Source: Peribolospora baueri
Lineage: Eukaryota
Assembly (NCBI GenBank): GCA_029717555.1
Contig: JAMDHS010000012.1
Location: forward strand, 1-64,000
Direction: 5' to 3'
DNA length: 64,000 bases
In this document: positions 1,568 to 28,149 of the stretch, in pieces
Layout: every line of letters begins with the position of its first letter
Position numbering within the stretch: position 1 is the first letter of the stretch
Program-made: the position numbers and the translations under genes
Notes under the pieces: generated by a model
Databases searched by the model: none
What the model was told of the DNA's origin: nothing
The model's input: only the letters and a program-made list of their open reading frames with translations

Positions 1568-4500
1568 TCAGATGAGGTACGTCGCCGGTACGACTCCGGT
1601 CCTGCCCGTGGCGTCCCTGGCGAGCCACCAGGAGGAGTCCTGGTCGTCGAGAATCTGCAGTTGCTGACCGGCGTGCAGGGAGAGCTCGGAGAGGTGGGTG
1701 GCTTCGAAAGAGTATCTCGCATACGCCGTCACGCCCTCGTCGCTACCCATGCCCTCCGTCGTGCTCGCCGCGCCAGCTCCCGCTGCGCCGCCCACGAGGC
1801 CCTCGTACGACTCTATCTGCGAGTGTGAATCGTACCCCTCGTCTTCGTCCGTGTGGCCATGATCGTGGCGGGCGCCAGCTGCTGCTGCTGCCGCCGCCGC
1901 ACCCGTCACCACGCCGCCCGCCGCGGCGACGGCGGTGGCCTGCTGAAGCGTGGCCAACAGGTTGTTCGAATCCTTGTACTCTTCCCCTCCGGTCACAGGC
2001 ACTGGCGCCGGCGGCTGATCATACTTGGGACTGCGCCTGGCGAGAGCGACGAGCAAGCCGACGAGCACGACGAAGAAGACGACGCCGAGTCCGATGGCGA
2101 TAGAGACGAGGATGACGATGCCAACGGCGAGGTGGCGCGAGGAGGAAAAGGTGAGCACCTCGTTGGAGCGGAAGAAGGAACGGATGACGCCCATCCCTCC
2201 AGTGGACGACGACGCGAGCAGGAACGGTCGCCACGAGGCGCCGTCGAAAAGGGCCGAGGAGACGTTGCCAAAGTCGGACATGACAAGCGAACCGCTGACG
2301 AGGAGCATCCGGTCCGACTCGAGCACGTTGTTGCCGTTGTGGTTCTCCAGAAGGGGGACGAACGTGAGCTGCTGCACGCCCGTGGGGCCGACGAGCTCCT
2401 GAGACACGGCGTCATAACGCTGTCCGTCCCACTTTACCAGGTAAGGCGTCGTGTCGTCGCTCGTCCGACCGGCGACAAAGATAGCGTTCTGGTTCAGGTT
2501 GTCGACGCTCAGCGCCGTCGCCGGGCCGGGAACCTGACCGTCCGCCGAGCCCATCGAGCCAAGCGCAGTCCAGGCCTGGGCGTTGAAGTCGTACGAGCCG
2601 ACGGCCGTCTCCGAGCCGTCGGGCAGGGTGATGTCGCCGCCGACGATGAGCTGATCCGCCTTGTTGGCCGCAAAGTCGATCGCGTTGACCGTGCCGCTGA
2701 TGCCGGCGCCGAGGGCGGACCACTGCCCGCTGCCGGTGTCCCACATGCAAATGCTCTGGCAAGGCAACGAACCGGCGGAGCCAAAGTCGCCGGAGACGAC
2801 GACGGTGCCCGTGTTGGGCCGGTGCGAGATGCCCGTCACGGTCAAGTTGTTCGAGCCTGACGAGGCCTGGAGGGGTGCAAAGTTTTGCATCCACGTCTTG
2901 GCGACCAGGTCGAACGCCTCGATGCCTCCCTCGCCGCCCACGTAGACCATGTTGTCCACCACGGACAACGCCCTCACTACGGTCACGACGGCCCTGTCAC
3001 CGGACTGATGAGGAGGGAAGCTCGTCAGCGTGTCGTTCTGGTCGTCATACAGGCCGAGGTTGACGACGCCGTCGGTGGTGGTGAAGTTGCCGCCGACGAT
3101 GGTGTAAGTGTGCTTGGCACCATTCGGGTCGGACCAGAACGCGCCCGCATAGACCTCGTTGTCTCCCGTGGCGTCGAGCGAGATGGGGCTGAGGGCGGCG
3201 AGGCGAAGCGACGAGAACGAAGGGCCGCTGCTCGTCGTCGCCGCCCGAAGGCTGGACAACGCTTGGGACGAGATGGCGCCATCCCTCACGGCCACCGCCG
3301 CAGAGTTCGACGCCCCCTCAAGGCCCCCGCTCCGAGCGGGAAGGTGGCCAGGCGAGGAGGCGGCCCGACCCCAGAGCATGTCGAACACGTTGCGACGATG
3401 GCCAACAGCGTGAGATGGCACGCTAGCCTGCGCTTCGCTCCTCCTTGACGGGTTCGAAGACGCAGCGCCGCCCGCAGAAGAAGAGACAGACCCGGAGGCC
3501 GACGAGCCAGGGACGGGCTTGAAAGTAAAGTTGAGAGGGACAAGGCCGGGATCGCTGGTCTTGTTCTTGGGCGCAGCAATGTTGAGCACACCGGGGGCAG
3601 CGACGTCGGAGACTCCCAAGATGGCACCGGCGAGGTAGATGACCGCCGTATTGTCCGTCTTGTTGGTCGTCGGGAGGGAGGAGGTGAGCGTGCCGGAGAG
3701 GAAGCCCGGCTGGGAGACCCACTGTCCGACTGCGTGGTCCCAAATGGCCAGTCCGCTGCTCGCGCCAGCGCCGGGAGCGTCGGTGAACGAGCCCATAACG
3801 AAGATCTGCGTGCCCGACACCGACAGCGACCAGACGGGCCCGTTGAGACCGGGAAGGGCGGCCCACTGGCGAGCGACGGTGTCGTACCTGATGACGTACG
3901 GCAAGCCGACGACCAGCCCGTCTGCGGTCTGAGTGAAGCTGCCGCCGAGGTAGAGGTAAGTGTCGATGGCGACGATCGAGTTGACCTCGCCATTGAGACC
4001 GCCGTTGGGGAGAGGGACAAGGTTGGTTCCGTCGAAGGCGACAACGTTGGCGAAGCTGACGTCGATGGCTTGCGAGACATTAAAGTCGGACGAGGTGAGG
4101 TTGAAATCCCATAGGGGGCCTTGGGAGGTGGCGGTGCCGTTGCCGCCGTAGGGCACGCCGGCCCTGGGGACGGCGGCGCTCGAACCCGAGCTTGAGGCAG
4201 GCACCGGGATCGGAGCGACCTGCCTTTGCGCCAACGAGCCTCTCCGATATCCTGCTGACGCCGTCGCGCCGCCACCGACGACGCCGTGCCCGCTCGTAGC
4301 GGTGGTGTTGAAACCGGAGGGGATGGGCGCGGTGAGGCCACCGAACTGGGAGAACTGACCGCTGGCGAACTTGCCCGAGACATAGGTCAGACCGCCGACG
4401 GTGACCGCGCCGGTGATCGCCGAGCGCTCGTTGCGCAGCAAGACCGTGTCGGCAAGGGCCACGCCGAGCAGGTCGAACTGACTCTCCGAGTCGGTCGCGT

Positions 4501-6610
4501 TGATGGGGACGAGGCCGGTGGCGTTGATCTGGCGCTGGATGAAGGCCGGAGAGGTGCCGTTGAACTCGAACACGCCGTACCCCGTCAGCTTGGGCAGGGT
4601 GAGGCTGGTCAGCGTCGCCTGGTCGTGGAGGACGAGGCGAATATGGTCGGCCACCATGTGCTGCGTGTTACCCCCGGAGGGCGCGGACGGGTTGGGGGGC
4701 AAACTGAGACGGACGTGGACGGGAGACGAGGTGCCGCCGTTGGTGGCCTCCAAGGGGCCGTTGTAGATGGGCATGTACTCGTCTTGCGCGTTCGTCTGGC
4801 TCACCGTCGTCGTGGTGGGCATGCCGACGCTGCCGGGGCTGACGACGGTCTGAATCTGTCCACGCTCGGCGCATGTTCCCACCTCGGTACAGCCGGGGGT
4901 GAAGAGGTAGATCGTGTAGTTGGCGACGGACGGCACCTGAGGGTAGAAGGTGACGGTGGGGTTTTCGTTCGCCGCGTCGGACACGGGCACCTGAGCTGCC
5001 AACCTCCACTGATCGGCGCCGTTGATGACGCCGGGGGCCATGGTCTGATACCAGCCTCCTTCGGCGACGGCGGTCGCGTCTGTGCCGTTGATGCCGGGCT
5101 GAGTCGAATTGCACGAGCCGCGGTTGAAGGAGTCGACGGCGTAGGTGATACCGCCGTCGGAGAGAGCCTCGAGGAGGTGCAGACCTGGACCGGCGCCGGT
5201 CCAGCCGGCCATGTGGACGGTGAAGCCGTCGGCCGAGATGGTGCCGTTGGTGACGCCGGGAGCGTTAGCGGCGATGAGGAAGTCTTGGTACGGGATTGAA
5301 GCGTCGGTCGACAGGGTGCAGTTGTTCGTGCACTGCACGATCTGCTTCCTTCCGGGGTCGTAGTAGATGAGGGAGAGCACCTGGTTCAAGGGGGTGGCTG
5401 AGATGCTGAAGGTGGTCAGACCCCGGCCCTGGTAGTGGGTATTGGCGAGACGGAAGCCACGAAGGAAGACCTGCCTGTACCACCGAGCGGTGAGGGAACC
5501 GCCGGTGCCGTCGCGCATGAGGAAGGAATTGCCGGGCCCATCGCCTCCCTCCGGGCAGAGGATCCTGTTGGGATCGCCAAAGCCAGCGAGGTCGCTTGCC
5601 CCGGTGGCGCTGAGCGTGGCCGAAGCGAGAGAGATGGGCGCGAGGTTCTCGGTGGCAGGCAAAGGCGAAGTGTCTGTGCCCGGGTTCACGGGGCCTGCGT
5701 TCGCCGCCGCGTTGCCAGCGGCCAAGACGGCGCCAGAGCGGGTCCTGGCGACGTCGGTGAGCGTTTGTAGGGTCGAATTGATGCCGAGAGCGGGGATGAG
5801 GGCCGAAATGTCGGAGGTGTTCTGGTATGTGACGGTGAAGTTGCCCATGAAGCGGATCGAGGAGGGCGAGGTGCCAGGGGAGATGGCGAGCACCGGCCCG
5901 TCCAAGCCGCCGAAGAGGGGCGGCATCCAGGCCTGGTTGGCAGTGGACCAGACGGCGACGTTGCCTTGAAACGGCGGCGTCGTTGTCGGGTCAGGGGCGG
6001 GGATGGGGCGGTGAAAGTCGCCGCCGGCGAAGACCTGCTCCCCGGCCTCGTCGCAGTAGAGCACGTTGACCTGGCCGTCGAGCCCTGACCCACCGACGAC
6101 GGCGCTGGAGCCCAAGGGGGCGAACGTGTTCGAGGCGGGGTCGTAGGAGACGACGTTGAGGGCCTGCACGTCCGCGACGGTGTCGAAGCGGCCGCCGAAG
6201 AAGAGGGTGCCCTTGGTGGGGAACTGGCAGACGACGGCGACACGGCCGCCGGGGTTGGTGGAGGCGAGCTTGGTGATCGTGCCATCGGCGTGACGGGTGA
6301 CGATGGAGGAGGCGCCGGCAGGGTAGATGGCGTCGGAGACGTTGGCGGACGGGAGCGTGTCGGCCCAGGTGAGGCCAGCAAACGCGCCGGCGGCGCCGAA
6401 GTTGCCCAGCGAGTCAAAGTCTATTCGCGGGGTGGTGGAATCGCCGACGACGAGAGAGAGGGCGGAGAGGAGGAGGGAGAGCAGGAGGAGAAGGGAGGAG
6501 GGCCATGAGAGCGGCAATGACCTCGGACGTGTTGGTCGTCGCGACGAGGAGCGGGGAGGGCGCGGGGTTGGGGGTATTGGCGGCAAGCGCGAGCGCGGAC
6601 GTGGCCGCAT
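1568..6610 (-). CDS. RAX2: Rax2-like cortical polarity marker: type I membrane protein with a C-terminal SH3 domain, single exon, 1680 aa
   Basis: N-terminal hydrophobic signal (SLLLLLSLLLSALSLVVG). Repeated beta-propeller-like GG.F / L.G.V..L units. Motifs GFRLANTHYQGRG and AGSLPCQSICMWD. TM helix LAVGIVILVSIAIGLGVVFFVVLVGLLVAL. SH3-like tail ARYSFEATHLSELSLHAGQQLQILDDQDSSWWLARDATGRTGVVPATYLI. Confidence 0.88.
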   Translation of the reverse strand: MRPRPRSRLPPIPPTPRPPRSSSRRPTRPRSLPLSWPSSLLLLLSLLLSALSLVVGDSTTPRIDFDSLGNFGAAGAFAGLTWADTLPSANVSDAIYPAGASSIVTRHADGTITKLASTNPGGRVAVVCQFPTKGTLFFGGRFDTVADVQALNVVSYDPASNTFAPLGSSAVVGGSGLDGQVNVLYCDEAGEQVFAGGDFHRPIPAPDPTTTPPFQGNVAVWSTANQAWMPPLFGGLDGPVLAISPGTSPSSIRFMGNFTVTYQNTSDISALIPALGINSTLQTLTDVARTRSGAVLAAGNAAANAGPVNPGTDTSPLPATENLAPISLASATLSATGASDLAGFGDPNRILCPEGGDGPGNSFLMRDGTGGSLTARWYRQVFLRGFRLANTHYQGRGLTTFSISATPLNQVLSLIYYDPGRKQIVQCTNNCTLSTDASIPYQDFLIAANAPGVTNGTISADGFTVHMAGWTGAGPGLHLLEALSDGGITYAVDSFNRGSCNSTQPGINGTDATAVAEGGWYQTMAPGVINGADQWRLAAQVPVSDAANENPTVTFYPQVPSVANYTIYLFTPGCTEVGTCAERGQIQTVVSPGSVGMPTTTTVSQTNAQDEYMPIYNGPLEATNGGTSSPVHVRLSLPPNPSAPSGGNTQHMVADHIRLVLHDQATLTSLTLPKLTGYGVFEFNGTSPAFIQRQINATGLVPINATDSESQFDLLGVALADTVLLRNERSAITGAVTVGGLTYVSGKFASGQFSQFGGLTAPIPSGFNTTATSGHGVVGGGATASAGYRRGSLAQRQVAPIPVPASSSGSSAAVPRAGVPYGGNGTATSQGPLWDFNLTSSDFNVSQAIDVSFANVVAFDGTNLVPLPNGGLNGEVNSIVAIDTYLYLGGSFTQTADGLVVGLPYVIRYDTVARQWAALPGLNGPVWSLSVSGTQIFVMGSFTDAPGAGASSGLAIWDHAVGQWVSQPGFLSGTLTSSLPTTNKTDNTAVIYLAGAILGVSDVAAPGVLNIAAPKNKTSDPGLVPLNFTFKPVPGSSASGSVSSSAGGAASSNPSRRSEAQASVPSHAVGHRRNVFDMLWGRAASSPGHLPARSGGLEGASNSAAVAVRDGAISSQALSSLRAATTSSGPSFSSLRLAALSPISLDATGDNEVYAGAFWSDPNGAKHTYTIVGGNFTTTDGVVNLGLYDDQNDTLTSFPPHQSGDRAVVTVVRALSVVDNMVYVGGEGGIEAFDLVAKTWMQNFAPLQASSGSNNLTVTGISHRPNTGTVVVSGDFGSAGSLPCQSICMWDTGSGQWSALGAGISGTVNAIDFAANKADQLIVGGDITLPDGSETAVGSYDFNAQAWTALGSMGSADGQVPGPATALSVDNLNQNAIFVAGRTSDDTTPYLVKWDGQRYDAVSQELVGPTGVQQLTFVPLLENHNGNNVLESDRMLLVSGSLVMSDFGNVSSALFDGASWRPFLLASSSTGGMGVIRSFFRSNEVLTFSSSRHLAVGIVILVSIAIGLGVVFFVVLVGLLVALARRSPKYDQPPAPVPVTGGEEYKDSNNLLATLQQATAVAAAGGVVTGAAAAAAAAGARHDHGHTDEDEGYDSHSQIESYEGLVGGAAGAGAASTTEGMGSDEGVTAYARYSFEATHLSELSLHAGQQLQILDDQDSSWWLARDATGRTGVVPATYLI

Positions 6611-7921
6611 GGTTAGGAAGGAGGGAAGGAGTCCGTGACGGGGAGCGGGCGCCGGGGGAGTGGTAGGAAGGACGGTGTCTGTGGTGTTGGTGGTGGCGAG
6701 CGGGCGAGCTCAATCAAAACAAGGACATTCCCGAGGGGCGGGGGCGGCGATGAAGGAATAGAAAACGTCGAAGAAAAAGGGGCCGAGGATGAAGGAGTGA
6801 CGGGGATGAGAGGATGAGAGAGAAAAAGGCGAAAAGCCGAGAGGAGGGTGGCTGATTTGGAGTGATAGCGAAGGGGAAGGGTCCTTCAAGGAGCGCGAGT
6901 CGGATGGAGGAAGAGAGGGGAGGGAGGGTAGGGAGGGTGGGAAAGGCAAAGGCGAGGATGGCAAAGGCAAAGGAGTGTGGGCGGACGAGGAAAGGGGAGA
7001 GGAGGAAGGTGCGGTGTGTGGGTAAAGAAGTCGCTCTGACGACGACGACGACGACGACGAAGGGAAAGGGGAAAGGAAAGTGACGATGAGGTAGATGGGT
7101 AAGAGAAGAGCGAGCCGGGCGAATGGCGGCGAATGGCGGCGATGAGGCGGCGACGAAGGTACGCAGCGCAGCGCGGATGAAAGGCGGCGGGCGCCAAGCG
7201 GACAGATGAGACGCAAAGATGGGGCGCGAGTCGGTGGAGTAGGGTTGGACAGGCAAGACAGGGGCGTCATGAACACCGACATGAAATCCACGACGCCGCC
7301 ACGCTCCTCCTCCCCGCTTGTTTGTCGCCCAGCGGAGCAATAGCAATAGCAATAGCATCTCATAGCTTATCATAGCACACCACAGCCCACAAAACCAGCC
7401 GGGCGAGCGTAAGCTGCTCCCACTCGCAATCTCGCCCCACCGTGTATCGTGCACATACCCTACCTACTTGCGTGCCCTCCCCCTGCCCTGGCGTGTTGGC
7501 ATGTGCCCTCTCGTTCTCGCTCCTCCAGCCTCCGTAGCCGGTGCCCCTCACGCGCGCCTTTTCTCCTCTTCGAACTCGCGCAGAGCAGAGCAGCCGCACA
7601 GCATGCAGAGAGAGAAGAGCAGAAAGAGCACTGCTGTGCGATGAACTGAACCGCGACAGGACCGTTCCGGAACGCGCGCAGCCGGCGTTAGTGAGACCCT
7701 CGTATGTATTAACGGGATAATTCACTAAGTAACAGCGAGCGGCGCACCCTGAAAATAAAATGCCTTATGCACGGCGTTCGAGACGGCGCAGAGCGGTCGC
7801 GCCCGCACGCTCCGATCGGCTACGTGGCATAGACGGAGACCGCACCCGAGTCGACTACCGCACGTGACCAGCCCGCTCGTCGCCGTCTACCTTCCATCGG
7901 CCGAACCCGTGGTCCCGACGT

Positions 7922-9538: not shown

Positions 9539-10828
9539 ATGTCCTTGTCCCTCTCCCGACCCACCTTCAGGGCTTTACGCGCCCTCGACCTTGCCATCGC
9601 GTCCGGCGCCGGCTCGTCTTCGTCTGCGCCTGCCGCGTCCGTCGTGGTGCAGAGGCGAACTCCGGTCGAGGTTCAGCCTCACGCTCGGACCAGTGCGCTC
9701 TCCTCCGCCGACGTCGGCGGCGCCCGCCACTTCAGCACCACTCGTCCCGCCTCCGCGGCCGGCAAGGTAGCGGTGTCGACGAACCCGCGCTCGTCCAGGG
9801 CGCAAAATCAGCAGTATGACATGAACGAGCTGGAAGAGTTCCGCTTCGACGACGTGCCCACTCTCGGGCACATGATCCTCGAGAGGCAGAGGGAGCTGCT
9901 CAAGTATTTCAGGCTCGTCGAGTTTGAGTTGCCCAAATTGAAAGGTGGGTGCGGTGGCCCGGCGGTGTGGGGGGCAGGATAGGGGAGAGGAGAAAGACCT
10001 CCTAGAGCATCATCCGAACCGGTCTGACATGACATGACTTGTCGGCTCTTCTTTGTCCCACCTCACAGCGTTCCGAAAACCCTTCACGCCCCCCCCCTCC
10101 AGCTCTTACCTCCGCTTCCGCATGCAGCACTATCAAGGCGAGCCCCACCCGGCGGCGCGCAAGGTGGTCCTCTCCGTGCCCGTCTCCGCGCTCGTCTCCT
10201 CGGGCGCATTGAAGAGCGCCGAGGCGAAGCACAAGTTTTTGCTTCTCGCCGGACCACGGTGGAGGCCATTGAGTGACGCTCCTTCTGTCGCGGGCGATAG
10301 CAGGGTCGGGGTGGAGGCGAAAACGAAGGAAGCGATGGAGGATGGTGAGGTGGTGATCAGCTCCGAGCTGTTGCCCACCGAGAAGCAGAACATGAAGTGG
10401 TGTTCTGACGCGTTGGACAGGCTTCTCAAGGAAGCCAACGTGAGTTTCCAGAGTCTCGTCTTAGTTTCTCCCGAGCCATCCCGCGCGCTTCAAAACTTTC
10501 CTGTTCATATGCTCATTCTTCTCTCTCTCTCTCCCCCTTCACATATTGCCAGGACCTGGCGGACCCGATGACCGACCTGCCCCTCGACCGACGACACCTC
10601 CTCTCAGCCTCGCGCAAGCGCGGTGCCAAAGGCCTCTCTCGCCGAGTCAGCCTTCGCGACTTCCCCAAGGAGTGGCTGAGGCCTTCTTCTTCTTCTGCCC
10701 CCGCTTCCTCTTCTCCGTCTCCCCCACCGTCTGGGCCGACTGCCGAGGGTCCAGGGCATGCCGCCACTGCCAATGTCGGGTCTCCATCCGGTTCCCCGTC
10801 TCCCTCTCCGTCTCCGTCTTCCCCGTAG
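9539..10828 (+). CDS. RSM24: Mitochondrial small ribosomal subunit protein mS35/Rsm24, 3 exons
   Basis: Presequence, then F.FDD.PTLGH..L..QRELL.YFRL..FELPKL|.FRKPF.PP..LRFR..HYQGEPHPAARKVVL, HKFLLLAGPRW, ISSE......QN.KWCSD.LD.L..EAN, DLPLD.RH and DFPKEWL. Confidence 0.88.
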
Positions 10829-12646
10829 TCATTGTACGCTCGTTTCGACCTCGCGTCGCGTCGCTTGCGTCCGTCGTACTCGAGCGGTTGGCCCCGTCCT
10901 CCTCCCTTGCGTCCTTCCGTTTGTCCGGCCGTCCGTTTGACAGCTGATGTCTCTGCGTTGCCGCATGCATGGGCGACATGACGGCTGGTGGGAACCGATC
11001 CTTGCATAGTCAAAGTTGCCTCTGCTTTCGGGCTGACGATCGCGACAGACCACTGAGAGACGGCGGGTTCGATGAAATGCGGTAAAGACGGAGGAGCGAG
11101 CAATAGAGGAAGCCAGCGGCATTCAGTTACTTTCGCTTCCGAAACCTTTCGCCCGAAGCGGAACGAAGATCGGCCCCGCTCACCGGTGTACTTGGCTGAA
11201 CGTGCTCGCGCCGATGAAGGGGCGGATGTCCTGACCTCTGGCGTGAAAGCATACAGTCTTATCCGGCATCAGGCCTTGGCCTCGTGTGGCTCGGAGACGC
11301 TGGCATAGGTTGGTCTGCATTGCCAAGTCCCGGCCAAAGGAAGCGGGGGAGAGAGAAACTTGGTACAATCGCACCAGACGAAAGAAGGCGGTGCTTCCTC
11401 TTGCCTTTCCAAACTTGCAGCGGCGAGCATGCAGAGCAGAATTTCAGGGACGGACGACGGGAGACGATGCGCTGAACTGAATCGGCGCCGCTTCGATACG
11501 ACGTCTCGAAAACGAGTGCTTCACCGTGCACTCCCTACGTTCCGCAGTGTAAAGCAAGATGCCAAAGTCGCATGGTATAACCCCCATCACATCTTCACCC
11601 GCAGATTTAGACCGAATGGGGGGCTGTCAGAGGCGACTCACGACTCTGGCGCCTTCGTGACCTGCGAGAAGCAGAGACGTCCCTGTCGACATTGGATTCA
11701 GTCACTATCGGGGAAATTAATGTCGGCGGGTTAGCAGCTTTTCATCCGGGATGCAAACAAGGAAAGGCGTCCTCAGGATCCCGTCCGCAGTGACTGTACG
11801 CATCGACTGGGGAAAGCAGAAGGGAAGTCAGTCGCCAACACGGCCGGACGTCGTCCACAAATACTGCTATAGGGCAGGAAAAGAAGGTCTCTCTGTCGCA
11901 GTTCACGGTGTAGGTCACCTTGGCCCTCACCTCAGGTCCAATTTGACGGTCCTGGACAAGCGGGGGTGCCTGTAGCTCCCAGGCGACTGCTCAGGCAGTG
12001 CGTAGGAACGGCTGGTTCAGTTTCAAGTCCCAAGCTGTCCAAATGAGGGCGCGGCTAAAACCAAAGGCGGAGTCTCACCAGTTTTGCACGTGCTGGTCTG
12101 GACATACGGAGACGAGGATTGCGAATGCGAATCGCGCACGGGCCACACTCCGCCGCAACCGGCAAGGCCATCATCGCGACGACATGCATCCGACGACTTC
12201 CTTTCCGCTTCCATCACGACTGCAGCTCGCAAGACTCTACTGAAGCTGCTCCACTTTGCGAGGGGCTCACTCAACGACCGCTGAAGCCGATAAAACGAGG
12301 ACGGTAAAAGAGCGCTGCTCAATTCGAAACGGTCGACATCGCTCTAACATTCGACATGGAAGCGGACACGTCTCGCGCGCTGAGCTACGCTTTGTTTTGG
12401 CAACTGACTGACGCTTCTGGACACGCCTCGTCTGTCTGTTTGTTATTGCACCCTCAAGATAGAAGGTCCTCTCACGATTATCTCGAATAACAGGGGCCAC
12501 GTTCGCCGGACGATAGCTTAAAAGACGGGCGTGTCGGGCGTGCTCGTTGTTGATCTTCGTTCTTCCCTCTTCCATCTTTCTCACACCTCAGCAATCTCGC
12601 TTTCTCACTCTCTATCCTCTCGCGTATTGCTCTCATCTTCCAAAAC

Positions 12647-13696
12647 ATGTCCGTCTCGACCCTAGACACCTCCCACATCAACATTCGGTCGCATCTGAAG
12701 ATCGTCGAAGACGCCCTCGAGCAGGCCCGTAGGGACTCTCTTCTCCAGACGTCCATCACCAGTCTCATACGTCGTGGCAGCTCCGCTTCGCGTCACAGCG
12801 TTGCCTCTCAGCGTAGCACCGCCACCCAGCGTAGCACCTCCTCGCGGAACCACTCCTTGCGCGCCAGGGAGGTGGTGCTCGTCCGACAGACCCCTAGGCG
12901 CAAGGTCCACGTTCAAAGAAGGGTCCACGGGAACCAGTTTGTGGCTGACAGCGGACTAGTCTCCACCCTCGAGGAGGACGAGCAAGAGATCTTCGGGACC
13001 TGGACCCAGTGGTGCTCTGAGGTCTGCTCTGAGGCTTGGGCTCCGTATGACGACGCCGCGGGCCAGGTCGTTCCTTGTGCCTTGACACAGGGCGAGTCTT
13101 TCGTCTTCGAGTCTGGCGTCGACTCCACGGACAGTCCCGTTCCGCCTCTTCTGAACCTCCCAGCGACGCGTTTGGTGAGCACGGTGGGCAATGTCCAAGG
13201 CGGTCAGCGACGAAGCAACTGTACCCTTGAGCGCTCCGGTGCTCTCCGTCGCTCGACCCGCTCGGCCGTCTTCTCCGAGTCGCGGCAAGGCTCCGCCTCG
13301 AATGATTTGGAACAGGTCAACCCGGATGCGATGGCAGTTGACTTGGACCAGGATCGGTTGCCTGCCATGAATGCTAGCGCAGCAGTTTCATCTACTTGCG
13401 CCCTGAGCGGTCCGCGCTCCAGCTTGCTGTTCTTTTGGCAACGCCAAAGCCAGAGGCAGCAGAGGAGCGCCGTCGCTCCCAGTGGTGTCGAGGGCGGGGG
13501 CGGAGCATACAAGGGCCAGACGGCGTCATCGGCTTTGCAGGATGCGCCTAGGAGAAGGTCGAGGAGGTGGGTGTGGAGCCCGGAAGCTCATGGGAAAATG
13601 GCAGAGGGTGATGTGAGGGCGGGCGACGAGGCGAAGGTGGCCGGCCGGACGGTGGGAGCGCTGTCCCAGCATAGCGAGAGGGAGAGGTGGTGGTGA
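12647..13696 (+). CDS. Intronless orphan protein, 349 aa, Ser/Arg-rich, no recognisable domain; its 5' end is copied in the nearby inverted repeat
   Basis: ATG in good context (aaaacATG) after a pyrimidine-rich 5' tract, with a 1050-bp uninterrupted ORF. One ordered-looking segment: LEEDEQEIFGTWTQWCSEVCSEAWAPYDD. Confidence 0.6.
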   Translation: MSVSTLDTSHINIRSHLKIVEDALEQARRDSLLQTSITSLIRRGSSASRHSVASQRSTATQRSTSSRNHSLRAREVVLVRQTPRRKVHVQRRVHGNQFVADSGLVSTLEEDEQEIFGTWTQWCSEVCSEAWAPYDDAAGQVVPCALTQGESFVFESGVDSTDSPVPPLLNLPATRLVSTVGNVQGGQRRSNCTLERSGALRRSTRSAVFSESRQGSASNDLEQVNPDAMAVDLDQDRLPAMNASAAVSSTCALSGPRSSLLFFWQRQSQRQQRSAVAPSGVEGGGGAYKGQTASSALQDAPRRRSRRWVWSPEAHGKMAEGDVRAGDEAKVAGRTVGALSQHSERERWW

Positions 13697-13834
13697 GGGA
13701 GGTCGGCTCGCTTTCGCATAGGTGCTGCTTGAGTCTGGATTGTATAGGTGTTTTTTTTTTCGGTTTGTTTCCCTGCTGTCTCTTTCCCGTCGACGTCCTT
13801 TCTCTTTCTCTCTTCTCCTTTCCCTCTCGAACTT

Positions 13835-13898
13835 GATCGACTCTCTCTCCTTTCCCACTTAATCGACTCTCTCTCCCCACCTAATCGACTCTCTCTCC
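13835..13898 (+). repeat. Three near-tandem copies of ATCGACTCTCTCTCC
   Basis: gATCGACTCTCTCTCCtttcccacttaATCGACTCTCTCTCCccacctaATCGACTCTCTCTCCtg. Confidence 0.85.
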
Positions 13899-14249
13899 TG
13901 TAGTAGTAGCATTTAGAAGAGACATGGCGATGTCATCTTCCAGGAGGAATTGGAACCAGGCTGTTCCGTATGCAAACTCGAAGAGCCCTGTCTGAAGGAG
14001 AAGGAAAAAAGCGAACGAAAGCATATATGTACAGACGCGAACGTCGAACGTCGGCCGGCGGCGGCAATCTGACGGGAGAAAAGATCTGGGGACGTGGCGA
14101 GTCGAAACAAGGAACACACGAGTCGGGACTCGGTCGGCTGCTTGCCATCGCCGTTCGGTCTCCTTTCCTTCTCTTACCACCTCGGTCGCAGGTCGTCACC
14201 ACCACGCGGCTGTGCGCTCACGACGCAGCCATACGATCCGGAAAGCGTC

Positions 14250-14694
14250 ATGGACGCAGCTCCCTCCGCCATCTCCGCCGAGGCGTTGTCGACGCTCACT
14301 CCGGAGAGCCAAGCATACATACGACGGCTCGCCGCCTTTCGGGCGAAATCGAGGTGGAACGAGTGAGTGGAGCGGTAGTTGAAGGGAGGAGTCAGGATAG
14401 GAGTCGCTTGCTGAATTCCTCCCCCCCTGACGAAGCATCTCCAAAAACCGTCAAGCGGCCGTCCTGGTCTTGCTCTTCGAAGCGCCCGCACATCCCACCG
14501 ACGCCGCCGCCGCCGACGCCGACGCTATATGCTCCGCGGCCAGCACATCGGCCACCGCGTCGACAGCGACGGCGCCAACGGAGCTCAGGGTCTTGTTGAC
14601 CACCCTGGCTTTGCACCTTCGTTCGCACCCGGGACAGACGGCCTTGCCTGGCGGGAGGGTGGATGAAGAGGATGGGTCGTATAGGATCACAGCG
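14250..14694 (+). pseudogene. 5' fragment of a Nudix CoA pyrophosphatase (PCD1/NUDT7-like); exons 14250-14362 and 14436-14694, truncated inside the Nudix box
   Basis: In-frame splice gives ...RQAAVLVLLFE...LRVLLTTLALHLRSHPGQTALPGGRVDEEDGSYRITA, which is the CoA-Nudix motif LLTxR(S/A)x3Rx3Gx3(F/L)PGG plus the start of the Nudix box. The first conserved Arg is Leu here, and no REx2EExG exon follows. Confidence 0.8.
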
Positions 14695-14890
14695 GTGCGA
14701 ACCAACGCCAGACATAGGATAGGTCGCGCGACACAGCGTTTCTTTTGCTAGGGACATCGCTGCTGATTTTCTTCTTCTTCTTCTTCTTCATTCCGCCCGC
14801 ATTGCTTGGATGTCGTGTGCATCCTTCATCGGGCTCAGATCCCGTCGACGTCCCTTCTCTTTCTATCTCTCTTCTTCTTTCCCGCTCGAA

Positions 14891-15321
14891 CCGTACTGGC
14901 TGGGGGTGCCCCTTTTTTGCTCTCATCTTCCAAAACATGCCCGTTTTCGACCCTCGACATCTCGCACATCAACATTCGGTCGCATCTGAAGATCGTCGAA
15001 GACGCCCTCGAGCAGGTCCGTAGGGAGTCTCTTCTCCAAACCTCCATCACCAGTCTCATACGTCGTGGCAGCTCCGCTTCGCGTCGCAGCGTTGCCTCTC
15101 AGCGTAGCACCACCTCCCTGGCGCGCAAGGAGCGGTTGCGGGACCTACCACGACGTATGAGATTGGTGATGGAGGTTTGGAGAAGAGACTCCCTACGGAC
15201 CTGCTCGAGGGCGTCTTCGACGATCTTCAGATGCGACCGAATGTTGATGTGCGAGATGGGGGTCGAGACGAGCATGTTTTGGAAAATGAGAGCAAAGAAG
15301 GGGCACCCCCGGCCAGTACGG
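14891..15321. repeat. Long inverted repeat: arms 14891-15068 and 15148-15321, spacer about 79 nt; derived from the 5' end of the 12647 gene family
   Basis: The arms are reverse complements, with a perfect 95-bp core (14958-15052 against the right arm). Both encode HINIRSHLKIVEDALEQVRRESLLQTSIT, nearly identical to the 12647 ORF. Confidence 0.95.
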
Positions 15322-16262
15322 GGGCCGAGCTTCCTTCCCACTCACCTCGGAAGTCCTCCCTCCCACGTCAAATCCCCAAGGTCCTGCCCGCTCTCGCCTA
15401 TCCCTCTCGGGACTCGCCTTCGCCTACACTTCCACCTTCCGGCCCTGAACCCCAGCATATATCCACCCTTCCATGACTATGGTCATGGCTCAAGGCGGCC
15501 TCCTACCCGCGAGCATGGCTGCGCCCCAGCTGGTCGTGATTCCGCATCTGAATGCGGCAAACAGGACAGAGACATTGAGTTGTAGCGCGCTCTGCTCTCT
15601 CTGAGACGGCGAAAAGGGACGGGGAGGCGACTGGATGGCTGCATTGAGCAGGCAGACTCTGTCAACCCTACCCATCGATCGTCCCTTTCCACCGAGAGCC
15701 TAGAGCAGACCGGGAGAGAGAGAGGAAGAGAGAGTGAGAGAAAAAGAAAAACGCGCCCGTCATTGTCCTGATGGCCTCGTCGGACGCGCCTTCGTTGCCC
15801 CGATCCGATCCGGCGCGGGCGCCGTCGCGCGTATTGTCCTATTGACGACTCATGACGGTGCTCGTTCGTCCCGTCCGCGAACGGGAATGGACCGCCATCC
15901 ATGCCTCGCCTCGCCTCGCCTCCGCTCGGCACCAGCGATGAGATGAGATGGGGAGAGGCGAGGCAAGGGTTCGTGTCAACATGCGGGCAAGTCGCTCGGA
16001 GAGGGAGGAAGCAAGCCTGACAGCAGTGGCAGCGGCGTGGAAGGGAAAGGAAGGAAAGGGAGCAACGTGTGGACGGGCCATGGCAGTCGGCGGTGTGTAT
16101 GGTATATATATCTCTCTCTGCAGAGCCGCATGGCGGTGAACATGCGGTGAGCCGGCTGCCAGGAGTGGGCGGAGGAACTTGGGGACGAGTAAGACGGGCG
16201 GGGCGCGTCCAGTAAGTACGTCGGTGCTGCATACGAGTGGGCTACGGAAGGACGAGGGAGTT

Positions 16263-16287
16263 CTGTCTGTCTGTCTGTCTGTCTGTC
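16263..16287 (+). repeat. (CTGT)n microsatellite
   Basis: ctgtctgtctgtctgtctgtctgtc. Confidence 0.85.
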
Positions 16288-17117
16288 CTTCCTGTTCTTT
16301 TCTGTCTCTATTCTCTTCGTATCGTCATTTCGTGCGCCGTCCCGTCCTATGCAATCCCATCCGTCCCATCCGTTGCCTTGATGCCGACGCGGCGCGAGCG
16401 AGGGCGTCAAGGGGTTAGAGCATGTACGATCTATTATGTACATCTGCGGTAGTAAGCGAGCATGAGAGGGGTCACGTGCGACGTGCCGTGACAGGCGAGG
16501 GAGGGCGCGAATGGGACGGAGAGAAAGGATGAAGTGAGACATTAGAGACTAGTCTCCGAGCCAATTGTAGTGGCGCTTAACTGCCGCACTTACATCCCAT
16601 TAGGGCGCCGTCGCCTCCGCAGGAAGGGGAATAGAGGGGGCTACGAGGGGGCATTACAAACTGTGTGAGGGCGCGGTTATAAAGGTTACAAAGGGAAGGC
16701 GGCGCAGATCGTCTGCTCGTCGGACGCGGGACGTCCGGAGTGGGAGCCGACGGACATAGCGCGCAAAGGGCGGCGCGGATGGCGGACAGCCGTTGGCTAG
16801 GCCGGTGGGCGGTGGGCGTGGGCGGTCAGGCTAAGGCTCAGCGCACCGTCGTCTTCTCTGCTCAGCCCCCTTCTCACCTCCGGCAGGGCCATCGTCCACC
16901 ACTCCCACCACCATCACCACCACCACCACTACCACCACAGCTTCTTCATCACCGTCGCCACCACCCCCTCCTCTCCCCCCGTCTTTGGTCCCCGTCCTCC
17001 CTTCCCCTCCTCGCCTGCCCCCTTTTCCCGCTCCCTTTCGCCCACCTCGTCCCACTCTCCCTCGACCCTCCCCCTCACCCCTCCTCCGCCCTCCGCCTTG
17101 ACACACCTCTTCGCGCC

Positions 17118-23155: not shown

Positions 23156-26100
23156 ATGGCAGATCCACCCACCACCACCAAGCTCTTCGATTGGACGCCG
23201 CCCAAGCCCGAGACCGACGCCGACTGGGCTCGCTTCCTCGTCGCCTACCAGCGCGGTTTCCCCGATCCCGGTCCTCCTCCTTCCTCCTTGCCCGCCCCGC
23301 CCGCCGCGCAACGGATAAAGGCCGACGGCGGCGGCACCGGCGCGTCCAAGGCCGCCAAAGCGATCACGATCGTCGGCGCGACCGCCATGGCCGCTGTCGG
23401 CCGTCATGCGAGGAAAGCCGCCGGCAGGGCTCAGGCGAACGGGCGAGGGGCGGACGAGGAAGCGGACGACAAGGACGACGACGACGACGACGACCGGGAT
23501 CCGTCGGACGGCGACGTCGCGAGCGTCCGCGTAACCGCCGGCGCCAAGTCCATGTCTCTGCCCGGTGAGCGTAAACGGGCGCTTGGAGACCCACTCCCGT
23601 CGTCCTGTCCTTCCTTCTCGCCCATCCACTGACTCCCATCATCCTCCGTTCGCCCCCGACCCAGAGTTTTACGACCTCTTCGGTTACCTCCCAGCGCCCC
23701 GACCGCCGAACCAGATGCTTCGGCTCACCGCTCTGTGAGTTCTTTGCGCACTGTCTGCCGCATGGAAGAAGGCACTTGGCTCATTCCACTCACTCCTGCG
23801 TCCGTCTCGGCTCCATCCCCGCTTTTGCGCCGCTGGCCTTCCCCTTCTTCAGACGCCGCTACGGACTCGACTCGTCCTCCCGTCGCGCCTTCCTCGAGCC
23901 CTACACCGAATTGGCCCGCACGCTGCTCAGGACGCGCATATGCAACGTCAGCATCATCACCGAGGACGAGCTCTTCGTTCCCGCCTCCGACGGCTCCGCC
24001 GTCACTTTTCAGGATCGGAAACAAGCAGGTACGTGCTCCCACGTCCGCCTGGCTGCTCTCCCGCCGGACGACATCCGCGTCCCTTCGCATCGCCCACCGA
24101 CCTCGTTTTTCCTTCGCCCCTTCGCCTCGACAGTCTGCCCTCATGCGCTCCTCTTCGCCGATAAGGGCGTCTTCGTCGTCAAGGACATGGCCGAGGACTG
24201 GCGGTTCGCCAAGAGCGTGAGTCGGCGTCCCGGCCGGCCGCGCATTCTCTTCCGTCACTGAACCCCGTCTCGTCTTTTCCTTCCTCCCCTTCTCGTAGCC
24301 CATCATCAAACAGTACACCGAGGAATGCGGCGCCGAGCCCCGCTTCTATGCGGGCGCGCCCCTCGTCCTGAGGGGCGAGGCGTTTGGGGAGGGGACCGTC
24401 ATCGGCGTGCTCGCTCTTTTCGACCCGGAGGTGAGAAAGATGTTACGTTTCGCCCTCCCCGTCGCGCTCATCGGCTGAGCGGTCTTTTTCCTTTGCATTC
24501 CCTGGCGTGCGTGCGTGCGTTCGTCGGTGTGCCCTTGCCCCTTCAGCCCCGAACCGATTTCACCGAGGTGGAGGGAGGGCAACTGAGCATGATCGCCGAT
24601 ATGGTCGTCCAAGCCATCGAGCGAGCCTTCTACGCGGCGCGCCACACCATCTCCGAGTCGATGGCCAAGGCCACCGTCGGCCTCATCCGCAAGCGCGACG
24701 CCCCGCCACCACCGCCGTACTCCAAGCACGAAGGCGACGATATGGTTATCGACACGGCCGCCGGAGACGACAGTTCGCCGGACCTCACCTCCGAGCTCTT
24801 CCAGGACGGCGTGGACACGATGCGTGACGTGCTCCACGCCGAGTCGGCTTGGGTCATCGACTTGAGCGGCTTCCACCTGAGCTACCAGAGCGGCACTAGC
24901 CCTTTGCCCTCTTCTGACGACGACGAGGTGAGCAACACGACGGAAAGCGAGGACGACGACGTGCAGGGCCACGACTACCACCACCACCAGCCGTCCAGTC
25001 GTCCCTGTTCGCCCTCTCCGTCCCGAACCCCGCCGCTCGACGTCCCCGACGCGATCACACCCTCATTCATCACGTACAAGCCGCGAAGGAGCGTAAGCGC
25101 CGACGCCGACGCCGTCGTCGTGTCCGCCGCCCGCTTCTCTGCGGACCGTCCGGTACCCTTGCTGGCGTCGAGCGTGTCCGACGGCGCCAAGCCGCGACGT
25201 CGGACTCTCCGTCTGACCGGCGCTCGAGCGCGCTCCTCGATCGCCACCTACCTCCGTCACTTGCAGGAGCACCGTCTGGCGGGCGAGAAGGAGGACACGC
25301 ATACCCACGTGCTCCGCTCCTCCGAGACGCCTCGCTACCTCCTCCGGCCTATCATGCCCGACGGCGGCAGCGGCACGTTCATGGTCGTCCCCGTCTTCGA
25401 GCTCGACCAGCAACCGGCCTTCCTCCTTCTCGTCGTCTTCGAGTCGCCCTACGAGATGGTCGAAGAGATTGACAAACGCTTCGCCGAGCAGCTCGGTGCG
25501 ATCCTCTTGGGCAGCTTTATCCGCGAACGTGTGCACGCCGTCGACCGCGCCCAGATTCGGTTCATTCAGCAGATGCAGCACGAGACGAGGACACCGCTCA
25601 ACGGCATCCTCGGCAGCGTCGAGATGATCTCCCAGAGCCTCTCGGCGCATCATGCGGCGGCGGACAACAAGGACAAGGCCAAGACTAAGGGTGGCGGCGG
25701 CGGTGGGCCCTGCTATTCGCCTTCGCCTGAGTTCCTCGCTTACGAGGCCGAGCTCGAGGAACACGTCAACGCCATCGCCGTCAGCGGCAGGACGCTCAAA
25801 ATCATATTAGATGGTGAGCGTCCCCGATCAAAGAATATATATCGAGCGGAGTGGGCGGGCCTCTGTCTATCCACGTCTTCGAAAGAAAGATTTCTTGAGT
25901 CCATTCATTCATTTCTGTGGTTTCTGGGTTTTTTTCCCCCTTCTTCTCCACCGTGGACGCGCAGATGTTTTGGAATTTGGCAAGGTGCGTAAGACTTGTT
26001 AGATAGAGTTGGAGTGCGCGGGACACGCTTCGTCGCTCATCTTTTCCCGCTCGTTTCCACAGGTTGTAGGCTTCTCGCCCCGGTCGTCGTCTCCCCCACC

Positions 26101-28149
26101 CGGCAAGGACGCGTCTTCGCGGTCTTCGGTCCTCGACGACGACGTCAAGGAGGAGAGGCTCAACGTCGGCTCAATGATGGAGGCTGTGGCGCGGCAAGAG
26201 TGGAATGACCGAATCCAAAAGCTCCCACTCACGCCCTCTCCCGGCTCTGTGGATAAAGACGCGGCGACGACACCGGAGATGCTCGTGCCCGAGCTCATCG
26301 TCAACCTTCCGCCAAAACACGAAATGACGGTCTCGTGCGCCGGTCCTGACATTCGGAGGTGGGTGGGCCCTTGTCCGTTTTCCTGAATGGCCGTCGGCGT
26401 GTGTGTGTGCGCGCGCGCGCGTGTGTGTCCCATCCGACCTGACCATCGTTCCTTCGCTCACCTTTCAGGATCCTGCACAAGCTCATCTCAAACGCTCTCA
26501 AGTTCACCCGAGAGGGCTACGTCGAGCTCTGCCTCCGCGCGGTAAAGGAGACCGGCAAGGGCGGAACGTATCTCGAATTCGTCGTCGACGACACGGGCTC
26601 GGGCATGTCCAAGAGTTTCATCGACCAGAAGCTCTTCAAGCCTTTCAGCAAGGCTGACGCCTTCTCCGCTGGCGCCGGCCTGTCGATGACGTTGTGTGCT
26701 GTGAGTGGGCCGGTCGTCGATTCAGCCCAGACTCAACCCGAGCTTAGTTCGAGTTCCGAGTTCCGTCGTCGTGCTTACGCTCCGCTCCTTCCTCTGTCTC
26801 GCTGTCTGCAGACCATCATCAAGCGCATCGGCGGGACACTTCGCGTGCAAAGCGAGGCCGGCGTCGGAACGCGCGTCGTGTGCTCTATTCCCGTAAAGTC
26901 TCCGTCTCGCCGGCCCGAGGCGTACGACGAGAGCGCTAAGGGCGTCCGCGTCGTCCTCGTCGGCTTCAAGGACACGTCTGGCCGGCGTCTCGCACCCGTC
27001 ATTCGACAGCAGGTTGGCCATGCGGGCATCATCGTCGTCTCCAATCTGGCCATGGCTGACCTCGTTATCTTCCGCGGCGACTCGCCGGACCAAGACCTGG
27101 CCCGGCTCAAACAGCACCTGGGCGGATGCAAGCCCACTGTCGAGGTCATCTATCTCACCACCGCCGGTGCGAAGGCAGCCACGGCGTTCCCCTCCGTCGT
27201 CTCAGTGCCATTCCACGTCGCCCATCGTCCTTACGGCCCCACCGCGTTCTCCGTCATCCTCTCCGTAGCGTCCTCCGTAAAAGCGCGGATGTCCTCAGGC
27301 CCGGCGAGTCCGACGATGACGATGACGACGACGACGACGACTGAGGAACAGCGAGGGCAGTCCTTGTTCCCGTCCGTCTCGTCTTACTTCCCTCCTGTCG
27401 AGACAGCCGCTTTCGCCAGCCTCGCTGTCGACTCTGGCCCGATCCTGTCGGCTCAGCCAGTGAAAAACGTCTCGAGGAGCAGCTTGTTGACGACGCCAAT
27501 GTCGGCGGAGGAGACGCCGTCACCACCGTACTCTTCCATACGTCCTCCAGGCTGGTACGATCCTCGCGAGGAGCCCTTCACGGCCCTCGTCGTCGAGGAC
27601 AACCCGCTGAACCTGCGCATTCTCACCGCTTTACTCAAGCGGCACAATATTCCTTTCATCGAGGCTTACAACGGCCTCGGCGCCGTCGAGGCCTTCAAGG
27701 CTTACCTTCCCTCCGTCACTCTCCTCGACATCTCCATGCCCGTCATGGACGGCTTTGAAGCGTCGAGGCTCATTCGCGAGGTACCGACCCGCCGCCGGCA
27801 TCGAATCGTCGCCATTACCGCACTCTCTTCCCCCGTGGACAAGAAGCGAGGCCTGCTCGACTGCCGCATGGACGGCTGGATCACCAAGCCGGTCGTCATC
27901 AAAGCTCTCTCGAACGATCTCAGCGCGTGGAAGAAGGAGTGGGACGAGGAGGTCGGTCACCTGTCTCCGACCAGCACCGACTCGGCCGGGTCTGGCGATC
28001 CTGATCAGCCGGCTGCGACGACGGCGGTCGTACCTTCGCTCTCCGATCTCGCCGTCGGCGGCCGTGGCGGCGCGTCGGCCTTGGAATCCCCCGCGCAGAT
28101 TCTGTCTCCCCCTTCCGGCGGCACACTGCACACGCTGCCACCGACTTGA
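23156..28149 (+). CDS. Multi-exon hybrid histidine kinase (GAF - HisKA - HATPase - receiver)
   Basis: GAF motifs TVCPHALL, FVVKDMAEDWRFAK and RFYAGAPL. H-box QHETRTPLNGILG, N-box KLISNALKFT, G1 VDDTGSGMS, F-box LFKPFSKAD, G2 GAGLS. Receiver LVVEDNPLN...LLDISMPVMDGFEA...ITALS...ITKP. A 20-nt micro-exon lies at about 25965-25984. Confidence 0.9.
26397..26428. repeat. Alternating purine-pyrimidine tract (GT)n(GC)n(GT)n in a histidine-kinase intron
   Basis: gcgtgtgtgtgtgcgcgcgcgcgcgtgtgtgt. Confidence 0.8.

Follow-up and report, generated by a model that had tools for sequence, protein, structure and literature searches.

An inverted repeat matching the 5' end of a neighbouring orphan gene within a multi-copy island of Peribolospora baueri

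The stretch analysed here, called the window below, comprises 64,000 nucleotides (nt) of the genome of Peribolospora baueri (GenBank assembly GCA_029717555.1, contig JAMDHS010000012.1, positions 1 to 64,000 of the forward strand). It contains, at 14891-15321, a long inverted repeat, or hairpin, whose two arms copy the 5' leader and the first ~46-78 codons of a 349-amino-acid (aa) open reading frame (ORF) at 12647. The hairpin is located 1.2 kb downstream of this ORF, a full-length member of a family that is present in several diverged copies. We consider it moderately probable that the hairpin is the product, or scar, of a rearrangement in a repeat island, in which arms coming from different family members were joined at a microhomology and partly homogenised. 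The activity proposed for it by a first-pass annotation of this DNA, namely the silencing of the family, is possible and unproven, and the hairpin would at present be regarded as a by-product rather than as a demonstrated device.

The inverted repeat and the copies of which it is made

A repeat search resolved the hairpin into inner arms (14958-15075 and 15141-15258; 118 nt, 97% complementary, separated by a 65-nt spacer) and outer arms (14891-14944 and 15268-15321; 54 nt, 93% complementary). When the two arms were aligned globally, 189 of the 200 columns were identical, and the differences between them amounted to 9 substitutions and 2 insertions or deletions (indels). The stem is ~175 bp long overall and has a perfect core of 95 nt, as the first-pass annotation had described. 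Folding of the region, which the same annotation had proposed, gave about -394 kcal/mol on either strand: the RNA of 14880-15335 reached -393.6 kcal/mol (z = -32.5) when read from the + strand and -394.0 kcal/mol (z = -35) when read from the - strand, and in both cases none of 100 shuffled sequences folded as well. It should be noted that 14891-15321 is the sole inverted repeat of at least 40 nt with more than 90% complementarity in the 64-kb window; the other two of the five inverted pairs listed there are GAC-type low-complexity sequences (73-75%), and no other copy of the fold-back unit was found within the window. A scan of the whole window against Rfam returned 0 matches. On the + strand, a stop-free frame of 272 codons (14767-15585) crosses both arms of the hairpin; it probably arises incidentally from the palindrome together with a high G+C content.

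The features of the hairpin and of the neighbouring gene that its arms match are the following.

12627-12646, + strand: conserved 5' leader block, directly before the ATG, common to the gene and both arms
12647-13696, + strand: intronless 349-aa ORF with no known relatives, of coding-like composition, no family or homologue found
13785-13832, + strand: pyrimidine-rich block in the 3' flank of the ORF, which recurs immediately left of the hairpin
14840-14891, + strand: copy of the family 3'-flank block, directly adjoining the left arm and 86.5% identical to the block at 13785-13832 over 52 columns
14891-15118, + strand: left arm, in sense orientation, with the 27-nt flank, the 5' leader, an ATG at 14937 and then ~60 codons' worth of sequence
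14958-15052 pairing with 15164-15258, no strand: perfect stem core of 95 nt, the longest perfect run in the arm alignment
15106-15111, no strand: junction of the two copies, 6 nt (AGCACC) that fit the end of the left copy and that of the inverted right copy equally
15106-15321, - strand: right arm, in sense orientation on the - strand, with the 27-nt flank, the leader and an ATG at 15275

Compared with the gene at 12647, the left arm (14917-15118 against 12627-12827) displays 93.6% identity over 202 nt and the right arm (15141-15295 against the reverse complement of 12627-12784) 89.9% over 158 nt; a further part of the right copy, 15106-15143, is 92% identical to 12842-12879 in reverse complement. 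A 52-nt block (12674-12725) is identical in the gene and in both arms, the nearest differences being located at 12673 and 12726. Both arms carry 7 common substitutions relative to the gene, both possess a ~27-nt flank (14891-14917 in the left arm) that is absent from the gene, and both stop at one sharp boundary, at 14891 and 15321 respectively. In a three-way comparison over 155 columns, the arms agree against the gene at 7 sites, whereas 6 differences are peculiar to the right arm and 1 to the left arm (6 vs 1, binomial p = 0.125). The inverted repeat is real as an observation, and every descriptive claim made earlier about it was confirmed by these alignments: that its stem copies the 5' untranslated region and first codons of the ORF, that the 52-nt identity is exact in both arms, and that the arms share substitutions and a flank which the neighbouring gene lacks.

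The two arms are not equivalent. The left arm contains an extra T at 14944 that shifts the frame and, as read by hand, leads to a stop after 28 codons. By contrast, the frame of the right arm remains open for 58 codons, tracks the family protein and reaches the equivalent of codon 78. The centre of the hairpin is asymmetric, the left copy ending near position 12820 of the gene and the right copy near 12879. The alignments of the left and right arms overlap at 15106-15118, where that of the right arm is perfect.

Copies of the family in contigs of four DNA runs

Four DNA runs, kept as contigs and obtained from two related organisms in one study, contain parts of 12400-15600, and their contigs were mapped on 11500-17000. 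They delimit the following feature.

11500-15550, no strand: multi-copy island, several diverged copies in two related organisms, the left end (11500) being the edge of the mapped range

Numerous contigs, each 100-300 nt long, tile this interval. Some of them, including those at 11763-11963, 13235-13465 and 13563-13748, have 0 differences from the window, and others carry 21-27 differences over ~230-285 nt (~90% alike) at a depth similar to that of the zero-difference contigs. At a single site, one alternative letter is carried by up to 7-8 contigs of one run (12222, 12263). To the right of the island, a single contig of 5855 nt has 0 differences over 15595-16894. Since the summed depth of contigs is not a copy number, the claim is limited to the presence of several diverged versions in both organisms, the non-coding flanks included. 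These results demonstrate that the gene family, or repeat family, is real. The first-pass annotation had argued that the arms come from another paralogue or have been homogenised, and had thereby implied such a family; the diverged copies bear this out.

The differences among the copies bear on the nature of the ORF. Among the 12 indels listed (136 more exist), those located within the ORF are of 18, 3 and 9 nt, all in frame, and the 9 located outside it are of 1, 13 or 14 nt. Among 15 listed substitutions within the ORF, a count by hand placed 3, 7 and 5 on codon positions 1, 2 and 3, respectively. From these sequences, the family appears to keep its reading frame while its protein changes freely.

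The same contigs also bear on the origin of the arms. The extra T of the left arm is missing in the other family copies that they represent. An insertion of 18 nt after 12847, found in other copies, has the appearance of a paralogue-specific character, and part of it is present in the right arm; relative to a paralogue with this insertion, the right arm would have in-frame deletions of 3 nt and 78 nt (alignment by hand). Judged from these characters, the two arms appear to derive from different family members, or to have exchanged sequence later.

Several rearranged joins were detected in other copies of the family. An opposite-strand join, 13110|13208, is found in two runs of one organism, with a matching side of 48 nt and approximately single-copy depth, which suggests a further fold-back junction, located in a different copy of the family. 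Further joins comprise a back-joint from 14839 to 11513 and skips of 3551 nt and 1942 nt. Some of these joins rest on short matching sides and are to be taken as leads only. Given the variety of junctions in other copies, the family would be prone to rearrangement.

Formation of the hairpin and its possible activity

Palindromes are kept alike by gene conversion from arm to arm, and fold-back or microhomology-mediated events are known mechanisms of inverted duplication. The hairpin resembles their products by its nearly identical arms, its substitution-free core and an asymmetric centre located at a short microhomology; such mechanisms explain the origin and upkeep of the structure, not a function. 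We propose that two truncated 5' fragments of the lineage-specific, multi-copy family were joined tail to tail at the 6-nt microhomology, either through loss of the DNA separating two convergent copies or through a template switch (fold-back event). The order of the elements on the left side, in which the 3'-flank block is followed by the left arm, is the one expected where two head-to-tail units of the family meet. The 95-nt core would have been kept, or restored, through gene conversion between the arms. Indeed, this core holds none of the 9 substitutions that separate the arms (Fisher p = 0.001), a distribution for which gene conversion is the most likely explanation, and which may also fit an earlier protein-level constraint on the one helix predicted in the family protein.

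Several points weigh against this reading. Selection for a perfect double-stranded RNA (dsRNA) stem would likewise give a core free of substitutions. The hairpin adjoins a full-length family member with which it shares the 52 nt of perfect identity. The putative second fold-back junction raises the possibility that hairpins may arise repeatedly, as in the arms races between hairpin RNAs (hpRNAs) and drivers. The way in which the hairpin arose is deduced from one locus only. Finally, at 15017, 15023 and 15041 every mapped contig of the four runs differs from the window, so that the arm core of the window itself is unseen among them; none of the listed pieces bridges the stretch, and the repeat is without independent confirmation.

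The last point also bears on another alternative, namely that sequencing or assembly errors in a repeat region gave rise to a chimeric fold-back, which we regard as very improbable. In its favour, the best runs contain only 0.66-0.69 of the sampled words of 12400-15600, the arm core is missing from their contigs, and misassembly is common in repeat regions. However, contigs drop variants and collapse inverted repeats, so that the missing core is weak evidence and not absence, and the silence of the contigs weighs little. Moreover, artefactual fold-backs have identical arms, whereas the present arms are set apart by their substitutions, indels and content, the asymmetric centre being made from different parts of the gene; it is on this account that an artefact is unlikely. 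The repeat is further located in the middle of the window with a distinct flank on each side, and its right flank continues into the sequence matched without any difference by the 5855-nt contig.

If the rearrangement product were transcribed, a transcript across it would form a dsRNA of ~175 bp. The likeliest source of such a transcript would be a + strand start at the pyrimidine-rich 14840-14891 block or read-through from a truncated NUDIX gene (described below), and in a host competent for RNA interference (RNAi) the dsRNA would silence the family, as Mu killer does MuDR. This leads to the alternative that the hairpin is a working hpRNA locus of the Mu killer type, from which Dicer would produce small interfering RNAs (siRNAs) silencing the neighbouring gene and its paralogues, either incidentally or under selection. 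We consider this rather unlikely. It is in line with the length of the stem and its perfect core, which make it an ideal substrate for Dicer, with the very stable fold predicted for either strand, and with the number of arm 21-mers that are identical to the gene locus (63 of 208 in the left arm and 39 of 196 in the right arm). The target family is multi-copy and fast-changing, the stem core is free of substitutions, and the pyrimidine-rich block and a same-strand gene relic are located just upstream. On the other hand, the arms share only 27 nt of upstream sequence, and neither would therefore bring the promoter of the family. The host range of RNAi speaks on both sides: it is patchy in Ustilaginomycotina, the subphylum to which the host belongs, being functional in some species such as U. 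hordei and lost in others such as U. maydis, according to PMC7763443. Among the ORFs of the window that were scanned, neither Dicer nor Argonaute was seen, which is uninformative for 64 kb of a ~23-Mb genome.

The first-pass annotation had also remarked that several differences between the arms would be G:U wobbles in a + strand RNA. As an argument for a selected RNA, this did not hold. Over 14891-15070 the arms differ by 8 substitutions, 7 of which are transitions; G:U pairs would form at 14901, 14915, 14946 and 15053 in the + strand RNA (4 positions) and at 14927, 14941 and 15069 in the - strand RNA (3 positions). Since any transition will produce a G:U pair in the RNA of either the + or the - strand, the split of 4 vs 3 (binomial p = 1) is without signal. 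With no strand bias of the wobbles and equal fold energies, nothing marks either RNA strand as selected, and the bias was rejected as a sign of a selected RNA; the lack of a strand-specific signal also counts against a working hpRNA locus.

Comparison with known systems helps to place the hairpin. In maize, the naturally occurring locus Mu killer (Muk) is an inverted, partial duplicate of the 5' end of a gene of a multi-copy element; read-through from an adjacent gene is the proposed source of its hairpin RNA, which would supply the substrate for siRNAs (PMC3440606). Here, similarly, the 5' leader and first codons of a member of a multi-copy family are inversely duplicated, and a same-strand relic is located just upstream. 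By contrast, the Muk hairpin is ~4 kb long and its target is a known transposon, whereas the present stem is of ~175 bp and belongs to a family that lacks a transposon signature. In Drosophila simulans, Nmy and Tmy are inverted repeats derived from the young, fast-evolving and proliferating Dox family (PMC10292708), and Dcr-2 and AGO2 process hairpin transcripts of this type to siRNAs that repress family members, as stated in PMC10292708 and PMC10317233. The source family of the present hairpin is likewise lineage-specific, multi-copy and fast-changing. However, the fly hairpins show no linkage to the targets, which lie on the X chromosome, and deletion experiments have proven their function, whereas the fungal hairpin is located 1.2 kb from a family member. 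More generally, long inverted repeats are frequent in eukaryotic genomes: LIRBase catalogues 6.6 million of them from 424 genomes and notes that such repeats can be transcribed to hpRNAs (PMC8728187). Most of the catalogued repeats have no shown function; the present one is distinguished by arms that correspond to the 5' end of a gene and are located beside that gene.

Two features of hpRNA loci are present in the hairpin, a long repeat able to form an RNA duplex and an extended perfect complementarity to a target (the 52-nt block), as is the feature characteristic of Mu killer, the partial inverted duplication of the 5' end of a family gene. The hairpin is best filed in the known class of gene-derived long inverted repeats. 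A published natural hpRNA locus in Ustilaginomycotina was not met among the listed titles on fungal inverted-repeat siRNAs, no search having been aimed at such loci in particular. It would be a distinctly improbable outcome that the hairpin is a natural fungal hpRNA beside its target, one of a series of recurring fold-backs whose siRNAs curb a proliferating orphan family, and thus a counterpart of Dox and Nmy/Tmy or of Mu killer. Were the hairpin to be transcribed and cut by Dicer, it would represent a natural fungal case in which a gene family creates a silencer of itself through inverted duplication, beside one of its full-length members, and this in a subphylum where some lineages kept RNAi and others lost it; the birth of silencing triggers and the role of the orphan family would then become testable in a small genome. 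Even as a scar and nothing more, it marks a lineage-specific repeat island, prone to rearrangement, amid ordinary genes.

The 349-aa ORF and the surrounding island

The composition of the 349-aa ORF looks coding. Its G+C content at third codon positions is 0.73, compared to 0.74-0.84 for the Rax2 and SF3b1 genes of the window, its codon log-odds is +0.05 in frame 0 and -0.17 to -0.68 in the other five frames, and none of 200 shuffles of local non-coding sequence reached an open frame of 380 codons. The predicted protein is basic (isoelectric point 9.4) and rich in Ser and Arg, and neither a hydrophobic segment nor a signal peptide was found in it. Its N-terminus not being hydrophobic, a secreted effector was rejected as a reading of the ORF. 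The structure model has a mean predicted local distance difference test score (pLDDT) of 40.6, corresponds mostly to predicted disorder and is too poor for a fold search. Its sole confident element is an N-terminal helix of residues 9-47 (pLDDT 73-88 for residues 11-40), and the perfect 52-nt block encodes codons 10-26, within this predicted helix. Downstream of the ORF, in its 3' flank, a C/T-rich motif of ~22-26 nt occurs three times in tandem (13823-13896).

Searches for relatives of the protein were negative throughout the collections covered: 0 families in Pfam, no match among 5.8 billion proteins (word-indexed search at near lengths), no usable match in the ESM Atlas, and 0 confirmed out of 144 pattern matches in metagenome contigs of the Joint Genome Institute (JGI). 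No homologue was accepted by phmmer among 1.84 billion representative proteins, the lone match (E 6e-4), a 528-aa repeat protein, being judged spurious. It should be noted that the closest relatives of the host Rax2 homologue (1568-6709), found across Ustilaginomycotina among 5.8 billion proteins, are only 45-51% identical to it. By its Rax2 homologue, the host thus belongs to a lineage of Ustilaginomycotina without a close sampled proteome. With no proteome of a close relative in the databases, the orphan status of the ORF is partly an effect of sampling. The first-pass annotation is upheld in calling the ORF an orphan as far as the 1.84 billion representatives are concerned, with the reservation that part of this status reflects sampling. 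Its further suggestion of a toxin/antidote or drive/suppressor pair found nothing in its favour, the protein having no domain, signal peptide or homologue.

Between the ORF and the hairpin lies the remnant of another gene.

14250-14751, + strand: truncated NUDIX relic (NUDT7-like CoA diphosphatase), with a putative exon 1 at 14250-14363, an intron, and an exon 2 ending at the stop

This relic has 217 homologues (best E 3e-8), nearly all with the PF00293 domain, and spans only about residues 36-106 of these ~280-aa proteins. On the relic itself, the Pfam NUDIX family PF00293 scored E 0.037 and 14.5 bits, under the cut-off of 21.1 bits. A search of the window with 8 full-length homologues (tblastn) did not find a C-terminal half. 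In the translation of the relic, judged against the Nudix box pattern, no Glu-Glu pair was found where the box should be, and the frame stops soon after. The N-terminal homology is clear from these homologues, while the catalytic box appears to have been lost and a full-length domain is not present. The possibility that the hairpin interrupts a NUDIX gene with a second half downstream was rejected, as only a Pro/Ser-rich stretch was matched there (E 0.43). The relic is located inside the multi-copy island, just upstream of the hairpin and on the same strand as its + strand sense.

In the ~4 kb of the island the family gene, the NUDIX relic, the family 3'-flank block and the hairpin follow one another in this order, between the housekeeping genes MRP-S28 (9540-10826) and G-alpha (from ~16800). 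This arrangement could point to a family of mobile repeats, in which the 349-aa ORF would be encoded by an element and the hairpin would be a fold-back or an internally deleted derivative of it, an alternative that we hold to be quite improbable. The non-coding flanks are multi-copy as well as the ORF, the island is an insert between conserved housekeeping genes, the NUDIX relic resembles a captured gene fragment, and the common arm boundary at 14891 and 15321 is sharp, all of which are consistent with an element. However, neither the ORF nor any of the 77 frames of at least 45 aa over 10830-16830 yielded a mobile-element domain (transposase, reverse transcriptase, integrase or other), the island is not bordered by terminal repeats, whether direct or inverted, and the ORF has no homologue in the databases searched. 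At the hairpin, the flanking target-site duplication typical of fold-back or MITE-like (miniature inverted-repeat transposable element) transposons is absent, no direct repeat being found just outside 14891 and 15321 when these borders were read from the sequence. Apart from the island, the window has the gene content of an ordinary fungal neighbourhood, encoding Rax2, SF3b1 and a hybrid histidine kinase. No telomere repeats were found in the window, which thus bears no sign of a chromosome end. In the gene of the hybrid histidine kinase (24262-28149), two adjacent open frames encode HisKA, HATPase_c and response-regulator receiver domains, and a tandem pair of a 48-nt unit, 77% alike, is located at 39612-39707.

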